Counted from the first letter of the whole stretch, positions 4,362 through 46,462 are shown. The stretch: 59,786 nucleotides of DNA, filler included, from 3 parts of 3 records of this genome joined end to end with filler, not necessarily neighbours in it; one strand, 5' to 3'. Notes: generated from the letters alone by a model not told the origin. Made by a program: numbers and translations.

Positions 4362-6194
4362 ATGGGTTACATGGGTAGAATTTTAAGGGTTGATCTGGTG
4401 AATAGAAGCGTTCGCCATGAGGTTTTGAACCGGAAATGGGCAAGGGAGTATATCGGAGGCAGAGGCCTGGGCATGCGATATCTGTTTGAGGAGGTGGACC
4501 CTTTGTGTGATCCCATGGGGCCCCACAACAAACTGATCATGATGACGGGCCCCCTTACGGGTACCGCGGCCCCCACCGGCGCCCGCTATATGGTCATGAC
4601 CAAATCACCCCTGACCGGGGCGGTTACCTGTTCCAATTCAGGTGGGCATTTCCCCGCCATGCTTAAGAAAACCGGTATTGACGGAATCATTTTTGAGGGG
4701 TGCGCCAGTGAACCGGTCTATTTGTACGTTACTGAAAAAAAAGCCGAACTCAGGTCGGCAAATCACCTCTGGGGAAAAGATACCCATGAAACCACCGATC
4801 TTTTAAAAAAGGAGACGGATAAAAGAACAAAGGTTGCCTGCATCGGGCCCGCCGGTGAAAAGGGGGTTCTGTTTGCCGGCATCATGAACGACAAGGATCG
4901 GGCCGCCGGCCGATCGGGGGTGGGCGCCGTCATGGGCGCCAAAAACCTCAAAGCGGTTGCGGTCACGGGTGATTTGAAGGTGCCTCTGGCGGATGGGAAG
5001 GTTTTTCAAGGGCATGTGAAAACCTATGTTGCAAAATTCAAAGAGAGCTTCAAGGACCAACCGCCGCCCCTTCGTACCTACGGCACCGCCATTACGGTTA
5101 TCGGTACGCAGAACGCCGGCGTTTTCCCAACCCGTAATTTCCAACAGGGCACTTTTGAAAAATGGGAGGAGATCGGAGGGGAGGCGCTTACGGAGAAGTT
5201 CCTGGTGAAGCCGGCCGCCTGTTTCAGTTGTCCCATCGCATGTGGCCGGGTGACCCGAATTACGGAAGGCCCCTATCAGGGGGAAGGCGAAGGCCCGGAA
5301 TATGAGACCGTTTATGCCCTCGGAAGCAACTGCGGTATCGGGGACTTGGCGGCGCTCACCAAGGCCAATTACATCTGCAACGAAATGGGCATGGACACCA
5401 TCACCATGGGCGCCACCGTGGCTTGTGCCATGGAGATGTACGAAAAGGGTATTTTGAGTGAAGCTCAAATCGGACGTCCCCTGCCCTTTGGAGATGCCGA
5501 AGGCCTCATCGAAATGTGTCGGAAAACCGCGTCCATGGAGGGTTTTGGAAAGGAACTGGCCATGGGGAGTCTCAGGCTGGCAACCGCCCATGGGTGCCCG
5601 GAGCTGGCCGTTGTGTCCAAGGGACAGGAATTTGCGGGCTATGATCCGAGGGGCGAAAAGGGGATGGGGCTGGCCTATGCCACCAGCAACATCGGAGCCT
5701 CCCATATGCGGGGAGATCCGGCTTACATCGAACTGCTCGGGGTACCCATGCTCGTTGATCCCCTGGCGCTGGACGGCAAGGCCCAAGTGGTCAAAGACTG
5801 GCAGGACGTATTTGCGCTCATCGATTCAGCCGGGCTCTGTGTGTTCTTCTCCGTTCGCAATCTGGTGACGCCTACGAAAGACATCCGTCCCGACGGTTTG
5901 TTAAAGCTTCTTAACGCCGCCACCGGCGCAACGTACGACGTGGACGAACTGGTGCGGGCGGGGGAGCGGATCATCAGCCTGGAGCGCCTTTTTCTCAAAA
6001 GGGCGGGGTTCGGTGCCAAAGACGATGCCCTACCCAAACGGATCACCTCGGAACCCCTTCCGGACGGGCCCGCAAAAGGGCAGGTGTGCGAACTGGATCG
6101 GATGCTGCCCGAGTATTACACCCTTCGCGGGTGGACCGATGATGGTTGTCCGGGGAATGAAACCCTGAAAACCCTGGGGCTCGATACACTTTGA
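4362..6194 (+). CDS. aor: Aldehyde:ferredoxin oxidoreductase (tungsten AOR family)
   Basis: GYMGRILRVDL, YIGGRGLG, RAAGRSGVGAVMGAKNLKAV, CFSCPIAC, GPEYET, GMDTIT, DSAGLCVF, EYYTLRGW. Confidence 0.93.
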   Translation: MGYMGRILRVDLVNRSVRHEVLNRKWAREYIGGRGLGMRYLFEEVDPLCDPMGPHNKLIMMTGPLTGTAAPTGARYMVMTKSPLTGAVTCSNSGGHFPAMLKKTGIDGIIFEGCASEPVYLYVTEKKAELRSANHLWGKDTHETTDLLKKETDKRTKVACIGPAGEKGVLFAGIMNDKDRAAGRSGVGAVMGAKNLKAVAVTGDLKVPLADGKVFQGHVKTYVAKFKESFKDQPPPLRTYGTAITVIGTQNAGVFPTRNFQQGTFEKWEEIGGEALTEKFLVKPAACFSCPIACGRVTRITEGPYQGEGEGPEYETVYALGSNCGIGDLAALTKANYICNEMGMDTITMGATVACAMEMYEKGILSEAQIGRPLPFGDAEGLIEMCRKTASMEGFGKELAMGSLRLATAHGCPELAVVSKGQEFAGYDPRGEKGMGLAYATSNIGASHMRGDPAYIELLGVPMLVDPLALDGKAQVVKDWQDVFALIDSAGLCVFFSVRNLVTPTKDIRPDGLLKLLNAATGATYDVDELVRAGERIISLERLFLKRAGFGAKDDALPKRITSEPLPDGPAKGQVCELDRMLPEYYTLRGWTDDGCPGNETLKTLGLDTL

Positions 6195-6243
6195 TGTCCA
6201 CGTCTTGAATGTACTAAAATTTCAGAATTCACAGGATAATCCC

Positions 6244-7056
6244 ATGAAGAAACTCATTATTACGGTTGCACCAACCGGTTCGATTCCCACAAAAAAACAG
6301 AATCCCCATGTCCCCATTACCCCTTCGGAGATCATTGAAACCGGCATCCGTTGCGAACAGGCAGGCGCATCCATCATCCATGTCCACGCCAGAAATCTCG
6401 AAGACGAATCCCCATCCACCGACTATCATCTCTTTGAAGAAATCTATACGGGGCTCAAGGAAAAAACCGATCTTATCATCCAGATTTCAACGGGAGGTCG
6501 GGCAGGGATGACCTATGAAGCCCGTTGTGATCGGCTCCGCCTCAGGCCTGAGATGGCCAGCTTGACCACCGGTTCCGTGAATTTTCCCACCTCGGTCTAC
6601 GAAAACAGTCCGGACCTTATTCAGGCTCTGGCAAACGATATGATGAAATACGGCATCAAGCCTGAAATGGAAGTTTTTGATCTGGGTATGATCAATAATG
6701 CCGTTTTGCTCGCAAAGAAAGGGTTTGCGGATCCGCCCCTTCACTTTGATTTTATCATGGGTCTAAAAGGCGCAATGCCGGCTACCATTGAAAATCTGGT
6801 TTTTTTGAGAAACACCATCCCCCTTGACGCCACCTGGACCGTAGCGGGTGTGGGTCCGGCCCAGCTTTACATGGGGGCGCATGCCATCCTCATGGGGGGG
6901 CACGTTCGGGTGGGTCTTGAAGACAATATTTATTACAAAAAAGGGCAACCGGCAAAAAATGAAGACCTGGTGGATCGCATGGTCCGTTTAAGCCATGAGC
7001 TTGGCCGGGATGTGGCCACACCGGATGATGCCAGGGATATCCTCAGCCTCGGGTGA
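6244..7056 (+). CDS. BKACE (beta-keto acid cleavage enzyme, Kce/DUF849 family)
   Basis: KLIITVAPTG, NPHVPITP, AGASIIHVHAR (Zn His pair), IQISTGG, KPEMEVFD, GGHVRVGLEDN. Confidence 0.9.
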   Translation: MKKLIITVAPTGSIPTKKQNPHVPITPSEIIETGIRCEQAGASIIHVHARNLEDESPSTDYHLFEEIYTGLKEKTDLIIQISTGGRAGMTYEARCDRLRLRPEMASLTTGSVNFPTSVYENSPDLIQALANDMMKYGIKPEMEVFDLGMINNAVLLAKKGFADPPLHFDFIMGLKGAMPATIENLVFLRNTIPLDATWTVAGVGPAQLYMGAHAILMGGHVRVGLEDNIYYKKGQPAKNEDLVDRMVRLSHELGRDVATPDDARDILSLG

Positions 7057-15376: not shown

Positions 15377-15928
15377 TCAAAAAGCAAGGCGTCTTGAATA
15401 AAACCGTTGATTTTGTGACATAATGATGTGGTGACAACGATCAACCATTTTGATTTTTCGGATACGGTATGTGGATTGATCCATATCTACCCAAAAGAAC
15501 CCTTTTTGGGAATCTTGCCGGCAACCCATCCATGCCCCTTCAATGAGATAGCTGTTCCGCGCCAGTGGGACCATACGGTTAATTTGATAGATGACGACCG
15601 TTTCGCCGCTTATCCTGTCATAAAACCCCTTTCCAAAACCTTTTCCCCGTATGTGGTCAAGGTCGACCCGTTTGTCGTTTAGGTCATCAAACCTTTTCAA
15701 GAATCGTGTGCCGGGCATTTTGAGAGGATTTCCAAATGCCAGACAGATCTTCTTTTGACATTGAATCACGCGGCTCTCCCGAATGAGATAGCGGAAAAGT
15801 GCTTCTCGAAAATTCATTTCATGAATATCGGCTTCTTTTTTTTCAACCGGAGAGAGGCGGCACCCGGATGTCCATAATAATAAACCCAACATCAAAAAAT
15901 ATGCCTGAATTCTAAATTGAATAGTCAT
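15377..15928 (-). CDS. Hypothetical lipoprotein
   Basis: ATG 15928 follows GAAGAGGG; hydrophobic N-terminus with lipobox-like LWTSGC; divergent from the MocR gene. Confidence 0.55.
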   Translation of the reverse strand: MTIQFRIQAYFLMLGLLLWTSGCRLSPVEKKEADIHEMNFREALFRYLIRESRVIQCQKKICLAFGNPLKMPGTRFLKRFDDLNDKRVDLDHIRGKGFGKGFYDRISGETVVIYQINRMVPLARNSYLIEGAWMGCRQDSQKGFFWVDMDQSTYRIRKIKMVDRCHHIIMSQNQRFYSRRLAF

Positions 15929-15985
15929 TTTTCCCTCTTCTTGAACTTGTTTATCAAAATTTTCCTTGCCCTTGCATGATAGGGG

Positions 15986-16048
15986 ACCATAAACTGTTGT
16001 ACCCTGTAAAAACAGATGCAGTTTGTTGAAAAACCAACCATAACAGTT
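15986..16048. promoter_or_regulatory. Putative MocR operator (direct and inverted repeats)
   Basis: ACCATAA direct repeat (15986, 16037) and AACTGTT/AACAGTT inverted pair (15992, 16042) in the divergent intergenic region. Confidence 0.45.
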
Positions 16049-16061
16049 TCGAGGGAAACCC

Positions 16062-17507
16062 ATGTCAATTGCCGCCCAAAAAACCTGTTCCGATTTTCAC
16101 TACGTCAAGCTTGCCAATGAGCTGGAAGGCAAAATCGCGGAAGGTGTTTTCGAGATCGGTGAAAGACTCCCTTCCATAAGGGAACTTCACAAGAGGACCG
16201 GGCTGAGTATCACCACCGTCTATCAGACCTACATTGAGCTGGAAAAACGGGCGCTGATCGAAGCGAAGCCCAAATCCGGATATTATGTGAAAGATACACC
16301 CAAGTGCGACCTGGCTGTTCCGGCGCCCGGAAAGGCGTTGACCGGTCCCAGCAGACTTAAAGCGGAACATCTTTTGTCTTCGGTGGTGTCTACCCTTGGG
16401 GATAAGGATCTGCTTCAGCTGGGGTGTACGGTGATTTCTCCGGAACTGCTCCCCTTGAAACAATTTTCAAGGTCCATCCGGAACATTTCAAGGCATGACA
16501 TGGAAAGTATCGTTAGCTACGGCAATCCCCAGGGGGCGCCTGAACTTCGAAGGGAGTTGGCAAAACGGATGATCACGGGCCGGTTAAACCCGGTTCGTGA
16601 GGAGGATATGATTGTAACCAACGGCTGCATGGAGGCCCTTTCGCTCTCTTTGAGAGCGGTGGCCGCCCCGGGAGATGTCATTGCGGTTGAATCTCCCACT
16701 TTTTTCAGCCTTCTTCAGTTGATCCAGGATCTGGGAATGAAGGCATTGGAGATACCCACCCACCCACAAATGGGGGTGGACCTGGCATCGCTGAAAAAGG
16801 CATTGAAACTGAACCCGGTAAGCGCCTGCCTTTTCATTTCAAACTTTCATAATCCTTTGGGATGCGTAATTTCCCATGAGAACAAGCGGGAACTGGTGGG
16901 TTTTTTAAATGGAAAAGAGATTCCCGTCATTGAGGATGATATTTATGGGGACCTGAATTTCCAGAAGCCCCGGCCCGCCACTTTGAAATCCTTTGACCAA
17001 AAGGGGTTGGTACTTTACTGTTCCTCTTTTTCAAAAACCCTGGCACCGGGTTTGAGGGTTGGATTCACCCTGCCGGGCATATTTTCGGAAAAAGTGAAAA
17101 GGCTCAAAATCAACACCACCTTAACCGCGCCCACCATGAATCAATTGATCCTTTCCGATTTTCTTAGTAGCGGATCGTACGAACGCCATTTAAGAACTCT
17201 GCGCACTGCCCTTAAAAATCAGATGCATCGATCCACCATGGCCATAGCCCGCTATTTTCCTCAAAAAACCCGGGTGACCGCCCCTGACGGGGGATTCATG
17301 CTTTGGGTGGAACTGCCGGGGAAGATCAACAGCCTGGATGTTTACAGGGAGGCGCTCAAAAAACGGATTTCCATTATTCCCGGATTGATCTGCTCCAATT
17401 CCACCCGTTACGGACATTTCCTACGGATCAGTTGCGGTTATCCCTGGAATGACCGGATGGCGGAAGGATTTCAAACCCTGGGAAAGATCATAAAAGGATT
17501 GGAATAA
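16062..17507 (+). CDS. MocR/GabR-family regulator (GntR wHTH plus PLP aminotransferase-like domain)
   Basis: GERLPSIRELH...SITTVYQTYIELE...PKSGYYV; IVTNGCMEAL; HNPLG; IEDDIYG; SSFSKTLAPGLRVG. Confidence 0.93.
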   Translation: MSIAAQKTCSDFHYVKLANELEGKIAEGVFEIGERLPSIRELHKRTGLSITTVYQTYIELEKRALIEAKPKSGYYVKDTPKCDLAVPAPGKALTGPSRLKAEHLLSSVVSTLGDKDLLQLGCTVISPELLPLKQFSRSIRNISRHDMESIVSYGNPQGAPELRRELAKRMITGRLNPVREEDMIVTNGCMEALSLSLRAVAAPGDVIAVESPTFFSLLQLIQDLGMKALEIPTHPQMGVDLASLKKALKLNPVSACLFISNFHNPLGCVISHENKRELVGFLNGKEIPVIEDDIYGDLNFQKPRPATLKSFDQKGLVLYCSSFSKTLAPGLRVGFTLPGIFSEKVKRLKINTTLTAPTMNQLILSDFLSSGSYERHLRTLRTALKNQMHRSTMAIARYFPQKTRVTAPDGGFMLWVELPGKINSLDVYREALKKRISIIPGLICSNSTRYGHFLRISCGYPWNDRMAEGFQTLGKIIKGLE

Positions 17508-17585: not shown

Positions 17586-17698
17586 GTGACGTTTTGAAAC
17601 CGGCCGGTGTCTTAATAACAAACGTCGTACGGTATTTTCCGAGCGCCCGCCTTTGAGCGGACCCTCGGGAGAAAACCCACATACATAAGGAGATGGTG

Positions 17699-19516
17699 AT
17701 GAATATATTAAAAAAGGTAATGTTGTTCTCTTTTATCATGATCGTTGGTTTTGTTTCCCAAGCATTTTCCGGTGACAAGATCATTCTGGGGAACTTTGCG
17801 GAATGGGCGGTTTACGGAAGAAATTACCATGTCATGGATATCCCCGCCCACAAATTGACCCATATCAATTATGCTTTTGCAAAGGTCACCAGCGACGGCG
17901 AAATCGAGGTCTGGGACACATATGCGGCCCTGGAAAAGCACTATCCGGAAACCGATTCCTGGGAAATTGATGAAATTAAAGGCAATTTCAAGCAGTTGCG
18001 ATTGCTTAAAGAGGCGCATCCCCACTTGAAGCTCACGGTTGCGCTGGGTGGGTGGACCGGATCACAGTATTTTTCGGACATTTCCGCCACCGGGGAGGGC
18101 CGCATCAGGTTTGCCGAATCGGCAGAGAGGTTCCTGGAGCAGTACCCCATTTTTGACGGCTTTGACATCGACTGGGAATTTCCGGTCATCGACGGCCTGA
18201 CGCCGGGCCGGCCCGAAGACCGTGAGAACTTTTCCCTCCTCCTTAGGGAACTGCGGGCCACCCTCGGCCCGGACCGTCTCATCAGCGTCGCCGTGAATGC
18301 CGGCCCCAAGGGCATCGCGGCCATCGATTTCAGGGAGGTGGTGAAGTACGTTGACTGGATCGGCCTCATGTCCTATGACTTTCACGGTACCTGGGACCCC
18401 GCAACAGGGTACAATGCCGCGCTCTACAATAATGGCGATCTTCTCGAACCCCAGGCCAACATGGACTCGGCCGTGATGAACCTGATGGATGGGGGGGTCC
18501 CTCCGGAGATGATTCTCCCCGGCCTCCCCTTTTACGGCAGGAGCTACGCGGGCGTGACGGCGCCGGGCATCAACCAGTCTTTTACCGGGGCAGGTCCGGG
18601 GACGTACGAGCGCGGTTTTCTCGATTATAAAGATATACAAGAGAATTATGTGGGAAAGGATGGATACGAATACTGCTGGGACGATATTGCCGGCGTGCCT
18701 TATCTCTACAATGAAGCCAAGCAGGAGTTTGTCAGTTATGACGATGCCAGTTCCATCGCGGGCAAGGCCGCCTATGTGGCGGATAAGGGGCTGGGAGGGG
18801 TCATGATTTGGGAACTCTCCAGTGACAACGGCGATCTGGTCCAGGCCGTCCACGACGGTTTCGGCAATCCGCCACCGCCCTCCCCTGAACCCGTGCCGGA
18901 ACCTGACCCGGAACCGGAGCCCGACCCGGAGCCCGTTCCGGGCGGTGATGCCCATTTCGAAATCCAAATTACCTCCGACTGGGGAAACGGCTACTGCGCC
19001 GATGTAACGGTGACAAATCCCTACGCGCAGACCATCGCATGGAAAGTGATCTTCGAACTGGACGGAAGCCTGAGTTCCCTTTGGAGCGCAAATTACGAAG
19101 TATCCGGTAACACCGTTACGGCCACGGGGGTCTCCTGGAACCGCGAACTCGCGCCTCAATCGTCCACAACTTTCGGTTTCTGCGCAACCCGTTCCGAAGA
19201 CACGCCACCACCCGATCCGGAACCGGAACCCGATCCCGCACCCGACCCGGAACCCGATCCCGAACCGATACTGGAGACAGCCGTGAGCGTCACCTCCGAC
19301 TGGGGAAACGGCTACTGTGCCAACATCGACATCACAAACAAGGGCTCAAGCAACGAGGAATGGACCGTCACCGTCCCCATCGAGGGAAATGTCTCTTCCC
19401 TCTGGAACGGAACCTGGGTCCAGGATGGCCAACTGCTCACCGTCGAAGGGATGAGTTGGAACCGCACCCTGGCGCCGGGCGGTAGCGTGCAGGTGGGGTA
19501 TTGCGCTGCCAGGTAG
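17699..19516 (+). CDS. Secreted GH18 chitinase with two C-terminal CBM2-like modules and Pro/Glu/Asp linkers (alternative start 17693)
   Basis: Signal peptide; LTHINYAFA; ALGGWTGS; catalytic FDGFDIDWEFP (DxxDxDxE); MSYDFHG; GLGGVMIWELSSD; two SDWGNGYCA...W...SWN..L.P....FGFC/GYC modules. Confidence 0.92.
   Translation: MNILKKVMLFSFIMIVGFVSQAFSGDKIILGNFAEWAVYGRNYHVMDIPAHKLTHINYAFAKVTSDGEIEVWDTYAALEKHYPETDSWEIDEIKGNFKQLRLLKEAHPHLKLTVALGGWTGSQYFSDISATGEGRIRFAESAERFLEQYPIFDGFDIDWEFPVIDGLTPGRPEDRENFSLLLRELRATLGPDRLISVAVNAGPKGIAAIDFREVVKYVDWIGLMSYDFHGTWDPATGYNAALYNNGDLLEPQANMDSAVMNLMDGGVPPEMILPGLPFYGRSYAGVTAPGINQSFTGAGPGTYERGFLDYKDIQENYVGKDGYEYCWDDIAGVPYLYNEAKQEFVSYDDASSIAGKAAYVADKGLGGVMIWELSSDNGDLVQAVHDGFGNPPPPSPEPVPEPDPEPEPDPEPVPGGDAHFEIQITSDWGNGYCADVTVTNPYAQTIAWKVIFELDGSLSSLWSANYEVSGNTVTATGVSWNRELAPQSSTTFGFCATRSEDTPPPDPEPEPDPAPDPEPDPEPILETAVSVTSDWGNGYCANIDITNKGSSNEEWTVTVPIEGNVSSLWNGTWVQDGQLLTVEGMSWNRTLAPGGSVQVGYCAAR
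18859..19270 (+). repeat. Two PEPD/PEPE coding linker repeat tracts in the chitinase (about 18870-18940 and 19205-19270)
   Basis: Degenerate CCGGAACC/CCCGATCC hexamer repeats encoding (P-E/D)n. Confidence 0.8.
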
Positions 19517-19523
19517 GGTACCA

Positions 19524-20471
19524 CTAGATTACCTCTACCCCGTGTTCCCGGTAGATACTCCTAAGCCGTTCAAAGCGATCTTTGTCATATAGACTTCCTA
19601 TGGCTTCCCTTTTGGAGAGCCTGGGGTCGAGGCGGAATTTTCCGTATTTGTCGATCCACAGTGGATTGTTCTTGAGCAGAGACGTGCGGATGACGCCGTT
19701 GGCCTGATAGAACATGGCCAGTGCCCTGATATTCTCCTCGGAGTCCGTGATACCGGGAATGAGCGGCGTCCGCGGAAGAATATCGAAGGGGCCGGATTGG
19801 GACATCCGGTGAAGTCGCAGGAAGTTCTTCCGAATGATGTCGTTATCATCTCCGCAGAAATGTTTGTGTCGGTCCCTATGGAAGATCTTCATGTCCATGT
19901 GGATCGTATCCACAAAAGGGAGTATTGCCCTTTCGAAATCTTCTATGGGGAATTTTCCATTGGTCTGGATCAGTGTATGAAAGCCTTCCCACTTGAAGCG
20001 CTTCAGCAGGGAGGATAGAAAGTCCATGAACAGCGTCGGTTCGCCGCCGGACACGGTGATCCCGCCGCCGGACACAAGGAAAAATGTCTTGTACGGGACG
20101 ACATGGCGCACCAATTCTTCGATGCTCATTTCACGCCCTACAGTTTCAAGAGCGTTGGCGGGGCACACTTCCACACACAAAAAGCAGAGGGTGCAGGCTT
20201 TTCCGTCAAACACCACAGGCGGCTCATCAAGCGTCGGATCTCCCTTTTTTCGCGCCTTTTCCGGACAGGCGGCAGCGCACGTGAGACACCCCGTGCACCG
20301 ACTCCGGTCATGGAACAGCTCGCTCCGGGGCAGTTTGCTCTCCGGATTGTGACACCAGGCACAATCCAGCGAGCACCCTTTCAGAAAGATGACTGAGCGT
20401 ATCCCCGGGCCGTCCTCCAGTGAATTGTGCTTTATTTCAAAGACAAGAGGCTTTTCCGGCCGGTTAAACAA
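19524..20471 (-). CDS. Glycyl-radical enzyme activase (radical SAM with a ferredoxin insert)
   Basis: SLEDGPGIRSVIFLKGCSLDCAWCHNPE (CxxxCxxC); CTGCLTCAAACP and CTLCFLCVEVCP; GGITVSGGEP; overlaps the GRE stop. Confidence 0.93.
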   Translation of the reverse strand: MFNRPEKPLVFEIKHNSLEDGPGIRSVIFLKGCSLDCAWCHNPESKLPRSELFHDRSRCTGCLTCAAACPEKARKKGDPTLDEPPVVFDGKACTLCFLCVEVCPANALETVGREMSIEELVRHVVPYKTFFLVSGGGITVSGGEPTLFMDFLSSLLKRFKWEGFHTLIQTNGKFPIEDFERAILPFVDTIHMDMKIFHRDRHKHFCGDDNDIIRKNFLRLHRMSQSGPFDILPRTPLIPGITDSEENIRALAMFYQANGVIRTSLLKNNPLWIDKYGKFRLDPRLSKREAIGSLYDKDRFERLRSIYREHGVEVI

Positions 20472-23400
20472 TAAACTCGGTTCTCCCGATAATTTCCAAC
20501 TGCAGATCCTGCTGCATGCGGGTGTAATACCCCGTATATCCGGAAACCCGGGCGATCAGGTCCGGATAGTACTCCGGGTGGGCCATGGCATCCTTGAGGG
20601 TATCGGCGTCCACCATGTTGAACTGGATCTGCATGCCGCCATTAATAAAATACGCTTGCACATAATTTGCGATATGATCCACATTCTGCCTGTGGGAGCT
20701 GCGATCCGCAAAGGAAAGGCGGACGTTCAGGGTGTAGTTGTTATCGCACGTGAGGGGATCGATGCTGGCAACGTCATTGAGGTTGTCGAGGAGGTTTTTG
20801 GAAGCCGCCGGATTCGGCGTCAGCCCGGAGGGGAAAGGGGTTCCCGCAAGCCTTCCCGATGGTGACGCCCCCGAAACCCTTCCGTAAACCGTGTGGTTGT
20901 TGTTGGTCCGGTACCCCGTGCTGTAATGTCCGCCCCTCCCGTTGTCATGGCTGTGCAGGAAGTCGGCGATCATACGGGTAATCCGTCCCACCATGCCCCT
21001 TCCCTCGGCATGTCCCGATCCGAATTTGGGAACACGGTTCATGATATAATGATGCATCCGCTCATGTCCCCGAAAGTTTGCATCCATGGCATCCCTCAGT
21101 TCTTTGAGCGAGTATTTCTTCTCTTCAAAAACCATCTGTTTGATGGTAAGCAGAGAGTCGGCAACGTCGGAGAGCGCAATGAAGGCCGCCCCCGATGAGT
21201 TATACCTTGCGCCCCCATGGGTCATTCCGCGACCCGACGGGATGCAATCCTGGAGCATGAGTGAGTAAAGCGGGGCGGGCATGATCTGCTGATGGATCCG
21301 CAGGATTTGGTGGGAAGCCTCCATCGCCTCCTTGTAGATGAATTTGAATTGTGTTTCAAAGGCATGGAAGAAATCATCGAAGGTTTCGAATGTTTCCACG
21401 TCCCCGGTCTTGGGGCCGAAGTCCCATCGGGCGGTGGGGTGATACCCGTTATAAACGGCCATGGTGAGAGGAACCATCAGGTTGGAATCCAGATCTCCGG
21501 GGGAGGCGAAATGTTTGCCGTGAATAACCGGTTCCACGCACCCGCACGACACCCAGTCCCTGGCATCCTCGACCCTCCAGCCGTGCTGACACAGGGAATC
21601 AATGATCGCCTGGTCGTTGTGGATCGACGGGGTCCCGCTGGTGAGATAATTGAGTTCGGCCACACGCCGGATAAAGGCGGTGCTGTTGACCCCCACCATA
21701 TAGCGGGCATCCATGTCCGGATCATCGAGGGAGAGCATTTCAGCCACCTTCAGAATAACATAGGTCATGTCGTTCACCCCGTCCTTACCCTCTGGGGTCA
21801 CGCCTCCCACCACCACGGATGCAACCCCCGGCGCTCCCGAGTTCTGCCATGAGGCGATGGTGGCCGCCGCGATCCGGTGGCTGGTGAAACGCAGGAACAG
21901 GCATCCCACCAGCTCCATGGCGTGTTTGATGTAAGGTGCCCTCTCGCTTTCAGGCAGCTTCTCCATATCCGCTTCAAAATACGGTTGCAGGATCTGGTCG
22001 AGCCGCCCGATGGTAATATCGTCATCCATACTGTCCAGACACAATGCCACAAACATGATCCAAAGCGATTGAACCGCTTCATGAAGGGTTTCGGCCGGGT
22101 ATCGGGGTACCCGTTTAAGGTTCTCATGAATGGTCTCAAGTTCCTTTTTCCGCACCGGGTCCTTTTCCCTTTCCGTTTCCCCCTTGACCGTTTCCGCCAG
22201 ATTCCGGGTATAGGCCAGCACACCGTCTATGGACGCGAGCATGGCGTTCCAGGTATTCCGCTTCTCTTCATCGGCCTTCTGATAGACCCTTGACGTATCC
22301 TCACTGGCGGCCAATTGCTGCAGGATTTCGCTTCTTATGTTCTCGAGACCCATGCCAACCACCCTTTCGAATCCCGGGCTGCCGGGATTCAGGGAAAAGA
22401 GGCTCCAGAAATTGAAGCAGAACATCCGGTCGTTTATTTGAGCGGACAGGGGGTAGTTGTTTTGGTCTTTCCACATGTGCAGAATATGTTTGTCCATCCA
22501 GTAAGGGAAAACATACTTGTGCAAGATTTCCTTTGTCTCGTCGCTGATGTAGAAGGGGTCCAGTTCACGGTCTTTCAGGGTGGTCATCTCTCCCCAGATG
22601 GACCAGCCCACCGTGTAGGGCTGGTTGACGGAACCGCAGATGGGGTTCGGCGTGACGGTGCCGGCAAGGAGGTCGTCTTTGCGGAGCAGCGGCTCCTTGT
22701 TTTTCATCAGGTGTTCAAAGGCTTTTGCCGTGCGAAGCATGGGATCCCAGGCTGAACCGTCTTTTTTCTTATGAAATCCGTTCTCCACATGGAAGTCGGT
22801 CAGCAACCGACCTTGTTCGGCGGTGACTTCCGGCATGGTATGGTAGTGATCCTTCCGGAACCTCACAAGGCGGGGAAAGTCCTCCAAGGCGTATGGGGAC
22901 AGGTACGGTTCCTTGAGCCACTTGACACCGGGATCCATGTGTTCCGCCCGCAACCTTCCCCCAATCCGGTTCTGGCGCATCTTTCGCTGGGGTTCTCCCG
23001 CTTTTTCCGCACGCTCAAGGTTTTCCCGTCTGTGCTTTTGGGCCTGTTCCCTGAACGACTTCACGTCCTCGTCCCGGCTGATCAGGCCGGCCAGATAGCT
23101 CACGTACCCGAATGCCGCGGGATTGCCTTCCATACGAACATGACTGGCCAGAAACATTCTGATGGCCTCGTCATGGCCGGCGTTGAGGTATTTTGCAAAC
23201 GTCTGTTTGCCGTCAAACACCAGGGTTGCATTCGCATGGCGTTTGCAGACACCCTTGATGACGTTACATCTGGCACCTTGGATCTCAATGGTGAACCGGA
23301 TGGCATCATCTTCCGTCCTGATCCCCACGACCGCGTTGATCGGTCCCAGCATGCCGACCATTTCCCGGTTCAGATTCGGGTCCGTGTTGAGTGCCTCTTG

Positions 23401-23493
23401 AATGTCCCTCAGTGTTGAATGCAACAGCTCCCCTGGGTTCTCACTTTCCTTTCCTATGGAGTGGATACCTACCAGATTCCTGAAATCGTTCAT
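20464..23493 (-). CDS. Glycyl radical enzyme (PFL superfamily) with an N-terminal SCP2-like domain
   Basis: PAETLHEAVQSLW, IGRLDQILQPY, VGGVTPEGKDGVND, Cys loop SCGCVEP, PKFG, GASPSGRLAG, GGMQIQFN, glycyl loop LIARVSGY; about 150-aa N-terminal extension. Confidence 0.92.
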   Translation of the reverse strand: MNDFRNLVGIHSIGKESENPGELLHSTLRDIQEALNTDPNLNREMVGMLGPINAVVGIRTEDDAIRFTIEIQGARCNVIKGVCKRHANATLVFDGKQTFAKYLNAGHDEAIRMFLASHVRMEGNPAAFGYVSYLAGLISRDEDVKSFREQAQKHRRENLERAEKAGEPQRKMRQNRIGGRLRAEHMDPGVKWLKEPYLSPYALEDFPRLVRFRKDHYHTMPEVTAEQGRLLTDFHVENGFHKKKDGSAWDPMLRTAKAFEHLMKNKEPLLRKDDLLAGTVTPNPICGSVNQPYTVGWSIWGEMTTLKDRELDPFYISDETKEILHKYVFPYWMDKHILHMWKDQNNYPLSAQINDRMFCFNFWSLFSLNPGSPGFERVVGMGLENIRSEILQQLAASEDTSRVYQKADEEKRNTWNAMLASIDGVLAYTRNLAETVKGETEREKDPVRKKELETIHENLKRVPRYPAETLHEAVQSLWIMFVALCLDSMDDDITIGRLDQILQPYFEADMEKLPESERAPYIKHAMELVGCLFLRFTSHRIAAATIASWQNSGAPGVASVVVGGVTPEGKDGVNDMTYVILKVAEMLSLDDPDMDARYMVGVNSTAFIRRVAELNYLTSGTPSIHNDQAIIDSLCQHGWRVEDARDWVSCGCVEPVIHGKHFASPGDLDSNLMVPLTMAVYNGYHPTARWDFGPKTGDVETFETFDDFFHAFETQFKFIYKEAMEASHQILRIHQQIMPAPLYSLMLQDCIPSGRGMTHGGARYNSSGAAFIALSDVADSLLTIKQMVFEEKKYSLKELRDAMDANFRGHERMHHYIMNRVPKFGSGHAEGRGMVGRITRMIADFLHSHDNGRGGHYSTGYRTNNNHTVYGRVSGASPSGRLAGTPFPSGLTPNPAASKNLLDNLNDVASIDPLTCDNNYTLNVRLSFADRSSHRQNVDHIANYVQAYFINGGMQIQFNMVDADTLKDAMAHPEYYPDLIARVSGYTGYYTRMQQDLQLEIIGRTEFIV

Positions 23494-23572
23494 ATCCTGT
23501 TTTCCTCCATGTTTTCAGGCTCATTACCTTTAAGAACCATCCGTTTGGATAGGCCCTCCGGGTTGACGTATA

Positions 23573-24496
23573 TCAGGCCAAAGGTGGCGGGGGCGGGGGC
23601 AATTCACCACGCTCCAGGGCTTCACGGGCGGATTTTACCGGTATGGTTCCCTCGCAGGGGACACCCACCTGGCACAACCCGCACCCGTACCCTTCAAAGC
23701 GGTAGGTTTTTTCCACATACTCCCTGGAGCGGGCCAGATGCTGCCGGCACTTTTCTTTGTCATGGCCCGCTTCGGTGATGGCTCGGACCGGGCAGCGGTC
23801 AATGCATTTTCCGCAGGTCCCTTCGGCAAAAAAGAGGCAATAGGCCCGGTGATCGGCATAGGGCCGCGGTGTGGGTTCAATGGAGATTCTGGCAATGACC
23901 GATCCGGCCCGCAACGCTTTGCCCTTTTGGGTGATCAAACCATCGCACAGGCCGAAGGTGCCCAGACCGGCGGCGTGGGCCGCATGGCGTTCGGACCAGG
24001 AGGAGGCGTAGGAGAACCGTTTTGATTTGAGAACGGTCCAGTTGGGGACCAGCATGGGCGGAATGGCCATGTGTCCGGTATCTCCCAGGCGCCCAACCAC
24101 ATGGCGACGCAGGGCGATGTTGAAGGCTTCCCCGTAAACCCTGATTCTGGCCCATTGTTCGGCCGGAAATTTCCTGGCCCGGCGATTTGCCTCCCGGACC
24201 CGCTTTCTCTGGGGCAGAACCCATGAGATGACGGTCAACTCATCCGGCGTGGCGGGTTCCCGGGGAGAGTGCTGGGTATAGATCTCCCACGGGGTCCAGT
24301 GGAAGGCACCGATGTACTCCTTGTACTGTTGCCAGATGGGATCCGCACCCGAGGCAAATCCCACCAGAACATCGTCGTCCCAGGCCGCTTGGCCCGATTC
24401 GTCTCCCATGGTGTTGCGGGGTGAAGAGACAATAAAGGTCCGGATAACATTTTCAACCCACGCTCCGGCGTCACCCAAAATCGGTTCTTTGTCCAT
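23573..24496 (-). CDS. QueG/reductive-dehalogenase-like 4Fe-4S protein (epoxyqueuosine reductase-like)
   Basis: LVGFASGADP, WSERHAAHAAGLGTFGL, CLFFAEGTCGKCIDRCPVRAI, CGLCQVGVPC. Confidence 0.8.
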   Translation of the reverse strand: MDKEPILGDAGAWVENVIRTFIVSSPRNTMGDESGQAAWDDDVLVGFASGADPIWQQYKEYIGAFHWTPWEIYTQHSPREPATPDELTVISWVLPQRKRVREANRRARKFPAEQWARIRVYGEAFNIALRRHVVGRLGDTGHMAIPPMLVPNWTVLKSKRFSYASSWSERHAAHAAGLGTFGLCDGLITQKGKALRAGSVIARISIEPTPRPYADHRAYCLFFAEGTCGKCIDRCPVRAITEAGHDKEKCRQHLARSREYVEKTYRFEGYGCGLCQVGVPCEGTIPVKSAREALERGELPPPPPPLA

Positions 24497-24537: not shown

Positions 24538-26205
24538 TTAGATTCGTATGGTGTATTCATATCCCTGTTCGCACAAAAACAGCTGGCGTTTCAGGGCAAA
24601 ATCCTGCTCCACCGTATCCCTTGTGACCAGCGAATAGAAGTAGGCCCGGTTTTCCCCGGGTTTGGGCCTCAGGATCCTGCCCAGGCGCTGGGCTTCCTCC
24701 TGCCGGGAGCCGAAGGTGCCGGAAATCTGGATGGCCACGGCGGCATCGGGAAGATCCACCGCAAAATTGGCCACCTTGGAAACCGCCAGTGCACTGATTT
24801 TTCCCTCCTTGAAATCTTCGTAAAGGCTGTCCCGTTTTTTCTGGGATGTGGACCCGGTGATCAATGGGATACAAAGCCCTTTGGCCGCCTCCTTCAACTG
24901 ATCGATATACATGCCGATCAAAAGGATTTGTTTTCCCCTGTGCCGGGCCATGATCTCCTTAATCAAACCCTGTTTGGCGGGATTTTCCGAAGAAATCCGG
25001 AATTTTCTTCGCTTGTCGGCTACGGCATAATCCATGCGCAACTCTTCGGGGAGGGGGATGCGGATTTCGCAGCATCGGGCTTTGGCGATCCATCCCTGCT
25101 GCTCCATCTCCTTCCAGGGTACATCCACCTTTTTGGGGCCGATCAAGGCAAACACATCCTCTTCCTTGCCGTCTTCCCGAACCAGCGTTGCGGTAAGACC
25201 CAGCCGCCGTCGGGCCTGAAGCCCTGCCGTCACCTGAAATACGGGGGCCGGCAGCATGTGGACCTCGTCGTAGATGATGAGCCCCCAGTTGCGGTGGTCA
25301 AAAAGGGTCAGGTGAGGAAAATCACCTTCCTTATCCGGCCGATAGGTCATGATCTGGTATGTGGCGATGGTGACTTGGCGAATCTCTTTGGTATTCCCGC
25401 TGTATTCTCCGATGTCTTCTTCAGAAAGGTCGGTTTTATCCATCAGTTCCTGCTTCCACTGGCGGATGGCGGTCACATTGGTGGTGAGGATCAGGGTGGA
25501 GGTTTGAAGCTGGGCCATGCAGGAGATGCCCACAATGGTTTTTCCGGCCCCGCACGGCAGCACGATAACCCCGGCACCGCCCCGGTCGGCACCTTCGGCG
25601 TAAAAGGCATCGGCCGCCTGCTGCTGGTAGGGGCGAAAAGAAAAAGGCGTGTCCGAAAGGGTGGTGGCGCGCACGGCGAAATTTACCCTCGCACCCTTTA
25701 CATACCCGGCCAGGTCTTCCGCCGGAAATCCCGCTTTGATGAGTGCCTGTTTGATTCTGCCGCGGTCGGCGGCTCTGATCTGAAATTCGGTTTTTGAGAT
25801 CCGTTCCGTCAGTAGTTCCCCTATGGCGGGTGTATGGACCATCTCTTCCGCAAGGGGTTCACTGTCGGCCGTGAGGAGAAGCCCTTTGCCATTGCGGCGG
25901 AGCTTCATGCGCCCGAACCGGGATGCGAAATCATTGATCTCCACCAGGACGTGTTCCGGAACCGGGTATTTGGAAAATTCGCACAGGGCATCCATAATAG
26001 TGGTGGCGGGAATGCCGGCGGCCCGGGCATTCCAGATGGAAAGGGGTGTGATGCGGTAGGTATGAATGTGTTCGGGGGATTTGACCAGTTCCGCGAACCG
26101 GACCAGTTCGTTTCGGGCGGCTTCATAACGGGGGCTTTGCACTTCCACCAAAACGGTGTGATCCCCTTGGACAATGAGCGGGTTGACGGGGTTGAAATCG
26201 GTCAT
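24538..26205 (-). CDS. XPB/Rad25-like SF2 DNA helicase
   Basis: PLIVQGDHTVLVEV, ELVKSPEHIHTYRITPLSIWNA, FRPYQ, GVIVLPCGAGKT, IIYDEVH, RRLGLTATLVRED, QRLGRILRPK. ATG 26205 overlaps the upstream TGA (ATGA). Confidence 0.92.
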   Translation of the reverse strand: MTDFNPVNPLIVQGDHTVLVEVQSPRYEAARNELVRFAELVKSPEHIHTYRITPLSIWNARAAGIPATTIMDALCEFSKYPVPEHVLVEINDFASRFGRMKLRRNGKGLLLTADSEPLAEEMVHTPAIGELLTERISKTEFQIRAADRGRIKQALIKAGFPAEDLAGYVKGARVNFAVRATTLSDTPFSFRPYQQQAADAFYAEGADRGGAGVIVLPCGAGKTIVGISCMAQLQTSTLILTTNVTAIRQWKQELMDKTDLSEEDIGEYSGNTKEIRQVTIATYQIMTYRPDKEGDFPHLTLFDHRNWGLIIYDEVHMLPAPVFQVTAGLQARRRLGLTATLVREDGKEEDVFALIGPKKVDVPWKEMEQQGWIAKARCCEIRIPLPEELRMDYAVADKRRKFRISSENPAKQGLIKEIMARHRGKQILLIGMYIDQLKEAAKGLCIPLITGSTSQKKRDSLYEDFKEGKISALAVSKVANFAVDLPDAAVAIQISGTFGSRQEEAQRLGRILRPKPGENRAYFYSLVTRDTVEQDFALKRQLFLCEQGYEYTIRI

Positions 26206-28007
26206 ATCTGCTCTCGCAGTTGCGGCACGATGTAGCCCAGCCGCACCAGGGCCGTCATGAATTGTTTCTCTTTTCCCGGCAGGATCACAATATGTTTTTC
26301 CCCGGCTGGCCGGCACAGTTTTGACAGTTTTGTATCGGTGGTCACCAGTTTTTGAAGCACGGGATCTTTGCACCCAATGAGATGACTCCTGCCTGAGTAT
26401 TTAAGCCCGGATGAACGATTTTTCGCATCCTTTAAAAGGGTGGTTACGGTTTCGGGAATGGGCTGGGAGGACCGGGATGCCAGGAAAGTTTTGATTTCTT
26501 CAATGGTCGTTCCGTTTTGTGCCGATTCCAGGAGGGTGCGGGTGGTCAGTTTCCACAAAGCTGAAGACTTTTTTTGGCATGTTTTTTCAAGAAACAATTT
26601 GTCCGCAGGGGAAAGGGCGTGCATGTCGGTCACCACCACATCATGGTTGGGCAGGACGGTGAGAACCGCTCTGTTTTCGGTGGGTGCGGTTTCATAATCA
26701 TCGGCCATTTCCATGGCAAAAGCGCCCAATGCATTAAGCCTGATATACATGAGTCCGTCGTAACGGCTCAGGAAGTTTGTATCGTCCTCACCCCATCCCC
26801 AGATATCGTGGCAGTCGGAAAGGGCGCCGTCGGGATGGATATAGGCCACGTCAATGAGCCCCAGGGTGGCCGCATACTCAAACAGAAAGGCCAATACGTA
26901 CCGCTTTTTGACCATGGTCTCCCCATACTCATCCAGGTGTCCGTACTGGGAATCCCCCACATAGAGCTTCCAGGCGTACCGTACCACCTCGAAATCGAGA
27001 CCTTCCGAATTCATGGCACGGATCAATTCTTTCACCGTGAGCCATTTTCCGGGAGCGCACAGCATAAGACCGTCGTACAAAACCGGCCTTCGCGTATGGG
27101 CCGCAAACAGCGTGCGTCCCCTGGAAGACTTCTGTCCCTTGATCCGGTCCACCCGGCTGAATTCATCCAGGAACTTGGTGGTGTGCCATTTTGCCCAAGC
27201 GTCTTTAATGATCTGGGGAAGATTCCCCTTGAGTCCCTTTTTCCCCTTGTTGGTGAGTTTGAGTGTGCTGCCGTCCGCCTTTGCCAATCCCGTACCCTGA
27301 AGCAATACGGGCCATGCAAAGGCCTGTATATGGCCGATGCCCCCCAGAATATCCTGTTCTTCATACCAGTCGCCCTCCTGAAGGAGCTTTGCCAGTTTTT
27401 TCTGGGCTGCCAGGGTAGGGCGCCCCGTTTTGGCGCTGACCTTGATTTTGCCCCCTTCAACCAGCCGCAAAACGGTCTCCAGGTTATGGATGGCGGAAGC
27501 CGCCGTATTGCGAACCATGAGATCACTGTCCACCGTCTTCTCGTGGATGTCAAGCGGGATGGATTCAGGCAGTTTGTCCGAATATTTTATGCGATCTTCT
27601 TCGGGTTTTTTGAGAAATTCTTTTAATGCGTTCCTTAGGTCATTGGGGATATGCCGGTTAATTATAAAGAGGTCCACCAGGTGGCCCTTGGAACGCCACT
27701 CAAGGCTTTTACCGATAGACGGCGCATGTTGATACTTGGCCTTGAATCGGACGATATCCAACTCTCCTTCGGGAGAAAAGGCCGCTTCTTGAACCGCGGC
27801 CTTTTCGAGATCGACCAGTTTTTCAAAATGGGATTTTAGATGGGGACTCAACAGGGTCCCACAGATGGCGTTGACGATATCCGCTTTTCGAGTGGGAATT
27901 TTGTGACAAACCAGTTTTGCCAGAGGTTTAAGAGTGTCCACCCCGTAGCTGTTGAACAGGGCTTCTTTCAGGGTTTCGTATGTGGGGTTTTCAAGGTATG
28001 CGGGCAT
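26202..28007 (-). CDS. XPB-associated protein with a C-terminal helicase-associated (Helicase_C_3-like) domain
   Basis: 601-aa ORF translationally coupled to XPB. The C-terminal VLPNHDVVV...WKLTTRTLLESAQNG...FLASRS..PIPETVTTLL resembles the helicase-associated domain. Confidence 0.7.
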   Translation of the reverse strand: MPAYLENPTYETLKEALFNSYGVDTLKPLAKLVCHKIPTRKADIVNAICGTLLSPHLKSHFEKLVDLEKAAVQEAAFSPEGELDIVRFKAKYQHAPSIGKSLEWRSKGHLVDLFIINRHIPNDLRNALKEFLKKPEEDRIKYSDKLPESIPLDIHEKTVDSDLMVRNTAASAIHNLETVLRLVEGGKIKVSAKTGRPTLAAQKKLAKLLQEGDWYEEQDILGGIGHIQAFAWPVLLQGTGLAKADGSTLKLTNKGKKGLKGNLPQIIKDAWAKWHTTKFLDEFSRVDRIKGQKSSRGRTLFAAHTRRPVLYDGLMLCAPGKWLTVKELIRAMNSEGLDFEVVRYAWKLYVGDSQYGHLDEYGETMVKKRYVLAFLFEYAATLGLIDVAYIHPDGALSDCHDIWGWGEDDTNFLSRYDGLMYIRLNALGAFAMEMADDYETAPTENRAVLTVLPNHDVVVTDMHALSPADKLFLEKTCQKKSSALWKLTTRTLLESAQNGTTIEEIKTFLASRSSQPIPETVTTLLKDAKNRSSGLKYSGRSHLIGCKDPVLQKLVTTDTKLSKLCRPAGEKHIVILPGKEKQFMTALVRLGYIVPQLREQI

Positions 28008-46398: not shown

Positions 46399-46462
46399 TT
46401 GAATAATATTGCGGACGGTTTTGCGCTATAATCAAATATTAAAAACAGAATCTCAATCGCTG

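Follow-up and report, generated by a model that had tools for sequence, protein, structure and literature searches.

The window analysed here, a stretch of DNA of 59,786 nucleotides, encodes on its minus strand a glycyl radical enzyme (GRE) whose N-terminal extension is predicted to adopt the fold of sterol carrier protein 2 (SCP2), followed by its own activase. We propose that the two genes form an SCP2-assisted, eliminase-like GRE system acting on a hydrophobic hydroxylated substrate, and we give this reading a probability of roughly one half. Judged from their core sequences, the SCP2-fused GREs are a monophyletic family, mostly from sulfate-reducer-type anaerobes, and the window enzyme lies in its most divergent branch, which has an altered catalytic set. 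GREs are the main anaerobic route to chemically hard bond cleavages. To our knowledge, the characterised GRE eliminases, isomerases and decarboxylases all act on small soluble molecules, hydrophobic ones being taken only by multisubunit succinate synthases. A clade of GREs that bring their own lipid-carrier domain is thus a pointer to radical chemistry on lipid-like substrates, which bears on the breakdown of ether lipids, long-chain diols and amino alcohols in anoxic sediments. The clade is spread over sulfate reducers, syntrophs, Myxococcota, SAR324 and an Asgard MAG (metagenome-assembled genome), often as tandem paralogue arrays under TetR control. It also offers practical targets, and one of its hosts, Desulfoluna limicola ASN36 (locus L020), is in culture.

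Gene layout and the SCP2-type domain

Three consecutive open reading frames (ORFs) occupy positions 19524-24496 of the minus strand, coding for a 307-aa Fe-S protein, the 1009-aa GRE and the 315-aa activase. The features used below are:

20464..23493, minus strand: SCP2-fused GRE (P0001), 1009 aa (ORF and translation, Pfam)
23074..23442, minus strand: predicted N-terminal SCP2-fold domain, residues ~18-140, with the Gly-Asn pair in EGN, residues 122-124 (AlphaFold2, Foldseek)
22864..23073, minus strand: linker, predicted to be helical, that joins the SCP2 domain to the GRE core, residues ~141-210 (predicted structure)
22372..22392, minus strand: loop LNPGSPG, residues 368-374, with Pro370 at the general-acid His position (HMMER and MAFFT alignments)
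21529..21549, minus strand: Cys loop SCGCVEP, residues 649-655, with catalytic Cys652, Glu654 and the extra Cys650 (alignments)
20536..20550, minus strand: glycyl radical loop RVSGY, residues 982-986, with Gly985 (translation, alignment)
19524..20471, minus strand: GRE-activating radical SAM enzyme with a ferredoxin-type insert, 315 aa (TIGR02494; Radical_SAM and Fer4 domains)
23503..23508, minus strand: Shine-Dalgarno sequence GGAGGA, 9 nt before the GRE ATG (sequence reading)
23573..24496, minus strand: QueG-like Fe-S protein (P0003), 307 aa (Fer4_16), adjacent and on the same strand, judged to lie outside the system

The GRE matched PFL-like (PF02901) over residues 211-871 with 480.2 bits (cut-off 24.3) and Gly_radical (PF01228) over residues 890-990 with 70.8 bits (cut-off 22.2). 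It carries both the RVxG[FWY] loop and the catalytic Cys that define the GRE superfamily. The activase scored 246.8 bits against the GRE-activating protein model TIGR02494 (cut-off 174.35), and the Fer4 matches of its ferredoxin-type insert fall at residues 54-108. The activase ORF begins with TTG, and its overlap with the GRE stop is 8 nt long (TTGTTTAA). The system probably consists of these two genes, GRE and activase, with coupled translation. Between the Fe-S protein ORF and the GRE ATG there are 79 nt, and a convergent GH18 chitinase gene stops 8 nt from the activase stop, which leaves no space beside the GRE for genes of small beta or gamma subunits. When PduA, PduB and a bacterial microcompartment (BMC) protein were used as tblastn queries for shell genes, the window yielded one chance-level match (E 0.77), and 49 related loci yielded none at E<=1e-3.

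An earlier sequence-only reading of this DNA had described much of this layout, and our analysis agrees with it on the 1009-aa GRE with RVSGY and SCGCVEP, on the activase overlapping the GRE stop with a ferredoxin insert of its own, on the position of the QueG-like gene 79 nt upstream on the same strand, and on the lack of microcompartment or adjacent aldehyde-processing genes, the nearest of the latter, 14 kb from the GRE at 4362-6194(+), encoding an aldehyde:ferredoxin oxidoreductase. The extra N-terminal region that it reported is present, but extends for ~200 aa ahead of the PFL-like domain and not for 150.

This extension comprises the SCP2 core (residues ~18-140) and a linker (~141-210), for which long helices were predicted with low confidence (predicted local distance difference test, pLDDT, 37-58) and whose sequence is kept within the subclade of the window enzyme. 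A word-indexed search of 5.8 billion proteins found four relatives with the N-terminal region (P0004-P0007), of 1007-1009 aa and 49-64% identical over that region. With these and the window protein, AlphaFold2 reached a pLDDT of 63.1, with 65-88 across residues 21-130; with 31 family sequences, it reached 87.9 (predicted TM-score 0.80). In the 31-sequence model, two helices are followed by four strands, two more helices, a strand and a final helix, and the Gly-Asn pair before the last helix was invariant in all 31 sequences. We take a Gly-Asn or Gly-Asp motif at this place to be common to SCP2 proteins and the window enzyme.

Foldseek returned 36 PDB matches at E<=1e-3 for each model, and all were SCP2 domains among the matches listed, including AF1534 (3bn8), SdsA1 (2cfu), UbiJ (6h6p), the SCP2L domain of MFE-2 (1ikt) and rabbit SCP2 (1c44). 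Probabilities were 0.99-1.00 and target-normalised TM-scores rose to 0.67; the SCP2-like domain of Eis acetyltransferases matched more weakly (E ~0.02-0.04). Sequence searches were less telling. A PDB sequence search with the N-terminal region gave nothing better than EF-1beta (E 0.033), and the best ESM Atlas score for residues 1-210 (0.84) belonged to a PFL-like cluster of 90 members, which serves as a lead only. An exhaustive search of 1.84 billion representatives with an N-terminal profile gave 74 proteins at E<=1e-3, and 30 reached E<=1e-10. Nineteen of the 74 also had PFL-like, 11 matched Pfam SCP2 (PF02036) at E<=0.01, and four passed its cut-off (P0011, P0023, P0041 and P0079), P0011 and P0023 being among those with PFL-like; four others, with VWA, Big_12, PilN and Bac_transf, were evidently unrelated. 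The window protein itself did not qualify for PF02036 by sequence, whereas it did by fold. The models thus strongly support an SCP2 fold for residues ~18-140, and the SCP2-like pattern that the sequence-only reading had noticed is borne out by structure prediction, by Foldseek and by the four relatives above the Pfam cut-off.

The placement of the domain was modelled by folding SCP2 residues 18-150 and core residues 205-1009 as two chains, both taken from the one polypeptide. The interface score ipSAE, which is the model's own confidence and not a measurement, was 0.91, compared with 0.32 for the best of three controls; the mark applied to this score is reached by 51 of 78 solved complexes and by 2 of 108 mismatched pairs. 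Contacts agreed by at least 86% between runs, and the pLDDT of the partner was at least 83. Confident contacts joined SCP2 residues 44-54 and 107-140 to core residues 236, 297-358, 545-549, 687-690 and 869-873 (full-length numbering), of which 355-358 sit just before the strand-loop with Pro370. Since PDB searches found no solved SCP2-GRE (the GRE matches begin at query residue 202 or later), it is unlikely that the result reflects memory of a similar complex. The SCP2 domain is therefore predicted to pack against the catalytic barrel. We infer from the model that it may sit at the conserved GRE substrate channel, which the 2026 GRE review, in its account of the channel, places at the loop after beta-1 and two helices (PMC13450708).

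Family relationships and the active site

A scan of one genome per species yielded the 49 related loci (L001-L049). The GREs of L001 and L002 were 75-78% identical to the query. Those of L003-L029 were mostly 36-41% identical, apart from two partial matches of 45-48%, and their full-length matches ran from residue ~10-50 to the C-terminus. The remaining loci (L030-L049) held GREs of ordinary length, 27-38% identical over their best segments. The N-terminal domain was complete in 30 of the 32 GRE ORFs of L001-L029 and partial in the other two (L015, L016). L003-L029 came mostly from Desulfobacterales and their relatives, among them the chromosome of Desulfoluna limicola ASN36 (L020) and a metagenome-assembled genome (MAG) of Desulfosudis oleivorans; other sources were Syntrophomonadaceae, Clostridia, Myxococcota, SAR324, Oleiphilus and one Promethearchaeia MAG. 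In the last of these, an SCP2-GRE (L012:3174-6161), accompanied by an activase homologue, stands on a contig binned as a Promethearchaeia (Asgard) archaeon. The closest GRE relative, L001 (78% identity), is on a 4.1-kb contig of a Mycobacterium isolate assembly, and L002 on one of 4.4 kb in an Actinomycetota MAG that came from a tar biofilm. Contigs this short may stem from contamination or wrong binning, which leaves the subclade with an uncertain host range.

For the phylogeny, the catalytic core alone was used (54 rows, 789 columns, no row left out). References from annotated plasmid records were HypD, CutC, YbiW, PflB, a PduA/B-associated GRE and a Clostridium butyricum GRE, which adjoins an activase and an iron alcohol dehydrogenase and was taken as glycerol dehydratase. 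All 37 rows with the N-terminal domain formed one clade with support of 100 in the Shimodaira-Hasegawa-like approximate likelihood ratio test (SH-aLRT), both under LG+G4 (stem 1.12) and under LG+C20+F+G4 (stem 2.11), and all six references fell outside it. Within it, the window enzyme, P0004-P0007, L001 and L002 made up a seven-row subclade (SH-aLRT 100, stem 0.88 to 1.33). In the mixture-model tree the nearest outgroup was a Thorarchaeota/Promethearchaeota GRE clade (SH-aLRT 96), flagged as a long-branch join. These trees were quick searches, and the program warns of long branches.

Model scores placed the enzyme apart from characterised GREs as well. Every NCBIfam cut-off was missed (score/cut-off: HypD 413/1100, CutC 377/1050, HpfG 338/1000, HpsG 333/1000, PFL2-3 409/678), and non-eliminase models scored lower, with 260 bits for indoleacetate decarboxylase and 204 for HPAD. 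The best PDB matches were propanediol dehydratase (5i2a, 4.5e-108), HypD (6vxc, 1.9e-101) and 8id1 (6.5e-101), the latter identified as HpyG in the 2026 review (PMC13450708); MasD (9o8u, 3.3e-55) and TutD (4pkc, 2e-49) were weaker. The earlier suggestion of a core separate from known GREs is sustained by the tree, against HypD, CutC, the dehydratases, YbiW and PflB, and by the missed cut-offs. Membership in HypD, CutC or the glycerol/propanediol dehydratases was rejected on these two grounds and on the active-site alignment.

In that alignment, the Cys loop SCGCVEP matched the GCVE of glycerol dehydratase (Cys433/Glu435), HypD and CutC. Cys652 aligned with Cys433 of glycerol dehydratase and, in the CC pair of PflB, with the second Cys (Cys419). 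Cys652-Val-Glu654 has the Cys-x-Glu form of the GRE 1,2-eliminases and isomerases, and G-C-V-E was kept in all 37 rows with the N-terminal domain. The alignment strongly supports Glu654 as the counterpart of the Cys-x-Glu base that GRE eliminases and isomerases are known to have. As set out in the 2026 review (sections 5.6-5.7), this Glu hydrogen-bonds the substrate hydroxyl in every structurally characterised eliminase or isomerase, and the isomerases HplG, YbiW and PflD are among the enzymes that it describes with Cys-x-Glu (PMC13450708).

The general-acid position sets the subclade of the window enzyme apart. In glycerol dehydratase, His164 protonates the leaving hydroxyl, as described in the review (PMC13450708). 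HMMER alignments to 1r8w and 6vxc, together with a MAFFT alignment, placed a His at this position in all 30 rows of the wider family and Pro370 in all six distinct rows of the subclade; CutC has Asp there. The subclade also has Gly666 where glycerol dehydratase has Asp447, a loop HGKHFAxxGDxDSN after the Cys loop where the wider family has HxxHT, and the glycyl loop RVSGYTGYY compared with RISGYNAYF. Altogether, 63 positions are fixed differently in the subclade and in at least 90% of the wider family. The sequence-only reading had singled out an extra Cys two residues before the catalytic one. This Cys650 is real, but it is a trait of the seven-member subclade and not of the SCP2-GRE family. 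It was also considered as half of a PFL-type CC pair and rejected, as it aligns one residue ahead of the first Cys of PflB. With His lost to Pro370, the loop changed and Cys650 gained, the leaving group or substrate of the subclade probably differs from that of the main family.

Among known systems, the GRE 1,2-eliminases (glycerol/propanediol dehydratases, HypD, HpyG/HpzG, CutC) share with the window enzyme the PFL-like barrel, the Gly loop, GCVE and an activase with a ferredoxin insert, but identity to their plasmid homologues is only ~26-28% (tblastn), they fall in a separate clade, and they lack the ~200-aa N-terminal SCP2 module. The window subclade further differs at Pro370 and Gly666, and the window has no microcompartment genes. 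Fusion of an SCP2 fold to an enzyme is likewise found in the alkylsulfatases SdsA1 and Pisa1, and 2cfu matched at E 2.1e-6 and 2.7e-6 with 15-19% identity. In those proteins the SCP2-like domain, whose role is probably the recruitment of hydrophobic alkyl substrates, follows a metallo-beta-lactamase hydrolase at the C-terminal side, whereas in the window protein it is N-terminal to a radical enzyme. AF1534, UbiJ, human SCP2 and MFE-2 SCP2L have the same alpha/beta fold and order of secondary structure (target TM-scores 0.55-0.67); unlike these stand-alone proteins, the window domain is covalently joined to a GRE core on which it is predicted to dock, and is without a Pfam SCP2 match. The X-succinate synthases (BSS, MASS) are GREs for water-insoluble substrates with accessory protein parts near the substrate channel (PMC13450708, section 4.3), but they need separate small subunits and fumarate, the window locus has no small-subunit genes, and the similarity is much weaker.

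We found no description of an SCP2-fused GRE in the literature searched, subscription journals being outside its scope, and SCP2, sterol, "N-terminal domain" and "N-terminal extension" do not occur in the 2026 review (PMC13450708). A passage of the same review states that entire GRE clades are still without experimental validation.

Proposed function and competing explanations

By its sequence, the activase is of the kind that installs a radical on Gly985, from which it passes to Cys652 on the Cys loop. The SCP2 domain would capture a poorly soluble, hydroxyl-bearing, lipid-like substrate and hand it over to the active site. There, Cys652 would abstract hydrogen at or beside the carbinol carbon and Glu654 would deprotonate the hydroxyl; a neighbouring C-O, C-N or C-S bond would then break to give an aldehyde or ketone. 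A lipophilic substrate, as the sequence-only reading had supposed, is a reasonable proposal; its other suggestion, an acyl-CoA-type substrate, found no backing, as nothing points to acyl-CoA specifically. The Asp-rich loop of the subclade would, speculatively, suit a cationic group.

Gene neighbourhoods of the related loci bear on the product. An activase homologue lay within the fetched stretch in 24 of 29 SCP2-GRE loci. Pfam annotation of 16 loci covered 122 of 173 called ORFs, the 51 omitted being short ORFs and the matched GRE ORFs, and in 10 of these 16 loci a TetR regulator (TetR_N and TetR_C_33) adjoins the SCP2-GRE. In L014 an aldehyde dehydrogenase gene stands directly upstream, between the TetR gene and the GRE, and the locus also holds two AMP-binding (acyl-CoA) ligases and an enoyl-CoA hydratase. 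In L007, ferredoxin and aldehyde:ferredoxin oxidoreductase genes follow the GRE directly, and in L003 and L006 a short-chain dehydrogenase/reductase (SDR) of 3-beta-HSD type lies between activase and GRE. For the wider family, and for it alone, these aldehyde-oxidising and SDR genes speak for an aldehyde or ketone product. Tandem or divergent arrays of SCP2-GRE paralogues occur in L018 (three copies; L018:2969-12937), L019 (three; L019:1158-12913), L022 (two; L022:5261-12988), L024 (two; L024:7000-12943) and L025 (two; L025:6076-12943); copies within an array fall in different subclades, and some arrays have two TetR genes.

Several points weigh against an eliminase acting on a lipid-like substrate. 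The substrate and the binding of a ligand by the SCP2 domain are proposals drawn from sequence and models, the docking score is a self-assessment of the model, and a Pfam search with residues 1-210 at E<=10 gave no SCP2 match, only ORC5_C at E 0.24. The window enzyme lacks the general-acid His of C-O dehydratases of the HypD type (His160 in HypD), and the subclade has Thr677 where both dehydratases, HypD and CutC have Glu. Because these and other eliminase-conserved residues are missing, eliminase chemistry appears, from the alignments, less secure for the window subclade than for the wider family. The decarboxylase HPAD has Cys503/Glu505 (PMC13450708, section 5.4), and Cys-x-Glu is therefore not exclusive to eliminases; as a marker of them, which the sequence-only reading had taken it to be, it lacks specificity, being found also in the isomerases HplG, YbiW and PflD. 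The neighbourhood clues come from relatives just 36-40% identical, aldehyde-oxidising enzymes adjoin the GRE in only 2 of 16 loci, and the context of the subclade is readable in the window alone, the contigs of L001 and L002 measuring 4.1-4.4 kb. In the window, no aldehyde- or alcohol-processing gene adjoins the GRE, and tblastn at E<=1e-3 found no TetR homologue. A 228-aa ORF at 15377-16063(-) was considered as a TetR and rejected, as it is unlike the TetRs of the SCP2-GRE family.

The SCP2 domain might instead have a structural or regulatory role, as channel gate, shield of the radical domain, membrane tether or oligomerisation module, in the manner of the small subunits of BSS or HPAD, and the substrate might be small and polar. 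The firm predicted docking (0.91 vs 0.32) fits a fixed accessory part equally with a carrier, some of the weaker fold matches are to the SCP2-like domain of Eis, and GREs are described in part of the 2026 review as regulating channel access by small subunits or bulky residues (PMC13450708). We nevertheless consider this unlikely: the closest folds are ligand-carrying SCP2 domains, including that of SdsA1, whose structure was determined with decane-sulfonate and dodecanol; acyl-CoA ligases, an enoyl-CoA hydratase, aldehyde-oxidising enzymes and TetR regulators are among the neighbours in the family; and no conserved transporter or pathway for a polar substrate stands beside the gene. A different departure from our proposal would keep the hydrophobic substrate and replace elimination by other radical chemistry, for instance decarboxylation of fatty or isoprenoid acids or activation of hydrocarbons. 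The Cys-x-Glu of HPAD, the residues missing from the subclade, the binding of fatty acids by SCP2 domains (1pz4 is among the fold matches) and the occurrence of the family in hydrocarbon- or fatty-acid-degrading lineages (Desulfosudis oleivorans, Desulfobacterales, Syntrophomonadaceae and Oleiphilus MAGs) would suit such chemistry. Eliminases, however, outscored decarboxylases and succinate synthases in both NCBIfam and PDB searches, the locus has no room for small-subunit genes, and the wider family retains both the dehydratase His and the Glu, so that we regard it as quite improbable. Hxd3 is given as being without an alkane-activating GRE in Callaghan 2013 (PMC3653055), the glycyl radical literature found on Hxd3 concerned fumarate addition only, and a limonene GRE is a succinate synthase according to PMC12583861.

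The sequence-only reading had also counted the QueG-like gene as a member of the system, which raises the idea that P0003 works with the GRE, for example as a reductase using the extra Cys, in a new reductive radical chemistry. Both genes lie on one strand, 79 nt apart and with no terminator predicted in the gap, and Cys650 is kept within the subclade. The P0003 family, however, had 6363 matches in the same database in which the GRE subclade had only four relatives. Among the best 120 of the 6363, identity was 75-94% and length 290-312 aa, nearly always 304-307, and those with a named source came from Deltaproteobacteria or Desulfobacterales MAGs. No P0003 homologue was found by tblastn (E<=1e-5) in the fetched stretches of the 49 related loci, and the 267 nt upstream of the L002 GRE held nothing similar to it. 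A search upstream of L001 and L002 for the C-terminus of a QueG-like protein (tblastn, E<=100) met only Fe-S motifs inside activases, the upstream sequence of L001 being too short. Owing to the very large family and the lack of a homologue in the 49 loci, we take P0003, by its sequence distribution, to be an incidental neighbour outside the GRE system; a three-gene system is very improbable, and the membership proposed earlier did not hold up.

Returning to an SCP2-assisted eliminase, a bolder version would cast the SCP2-GREs as the missing enzymes for oxygen-independent cleavage of unactivated head-group bonds in membrane or sediment lipids, with the window subclade retuned to another leaving group. 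We hold this to be a long shot. A candidate reaction would be cleavage of the ether C-O bond in 1-O-alkylglycerols, with hydrogen abstraction at the carbinol carbon followed by beta-alkoxide loss, by analogy with the ring-ether cleavage of YbiW/PflD and the C-S cleavage of HpsG. For the subclade, with its Pro, GDxDSN loop and second Cys, the leaving group might, for example, be an amine group from a long-chain amino alcohol or a sphingoid base. Among the papers that a literature search on ether lipids listed, none mentions a glycyl radical.

In an Oleiphilus MAG (L023:12954-14979), a gene of the fatty-acid-hydroxylase family (PF04116) overlaps the SCP2-GRE stop and is followed by an acetoacetate-decarboxylase-like gene; PF04116 includes alkylglycerol monooxygenase, as stated in the abstract of PMC3304488.

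Neighbouring genes and the wider window

Upstream of the GRE on the same strand come P0003 and then an XPB helicase gene; downstream lies the convergent GH18 chitinase gene. P0003 scored 31 bits against the QueG model TIGR00276 (cut-off 200). Pfam gave Fer4_16 (30.9 bits) and a sub-threshold Fer4 (16.4 bits) without DUF1730, an N-terminal domain that we take to be a feature of QueG. Similarity to QueG in the PDB (E 8.9e-4) was confined to residues 163-281. By these comparisons, the double-cluster ferredoxin domain is all that P0003 shares with QueG and reductive dehalogenases. Sources label its family, which is very large and uncommonly well conserved, as epoxyqueuosine reductase despite the 31 bits against a cut-off of 200.

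Within 24538-28007(-), a 601-aa protein precedes the XPB-type DNA repair helicase (NF045503, 861 bits); this protein has a weak match, below threshold, to Helicase_C_3 (32.5 bits, cut-off 34.2), and the two may be an XPB-Bax1-like pair. The GH18 chitinase (17693-19516(+)), which has a proline-rich linker and two CBM2 modules, is unexpected next to the radical enzyme of an anaerobe. At 4362-7056(+), the aldehyde:ferredoxin oxidoreductase gene is followed by one for a beta-keto acid cleavage enzyme; in L007, an aldehyde:ferredoxin oxidoreductase stands directly beside the SCP2-GRE. A 1530-aa ORF at 46409-51001(+) had no Pfam match at E<=1e-5.

Composition changes along the window. The G+C fraction is 0.49-0.57 in 1-29000 and 0.40-0.48 in 30000-59786, then 0.31-0.35 at the right end. 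The left part carries genes for sigma-54, CheW/MCP, aldehyde:ferredoxin oxidoreductase and a Liv-type ABC system, and it also has the P0003 family, which is typical of Deltaproteobacteria MAGs; in the right part there are DUF4290, PrmA, GrpE-DnaJ, DnaN and a PKD-domain protein, a set that we take to be Bacteroidota-like. The window, which changes near 28-30 kb, may be a chimeric assembly or a join of different genomes.

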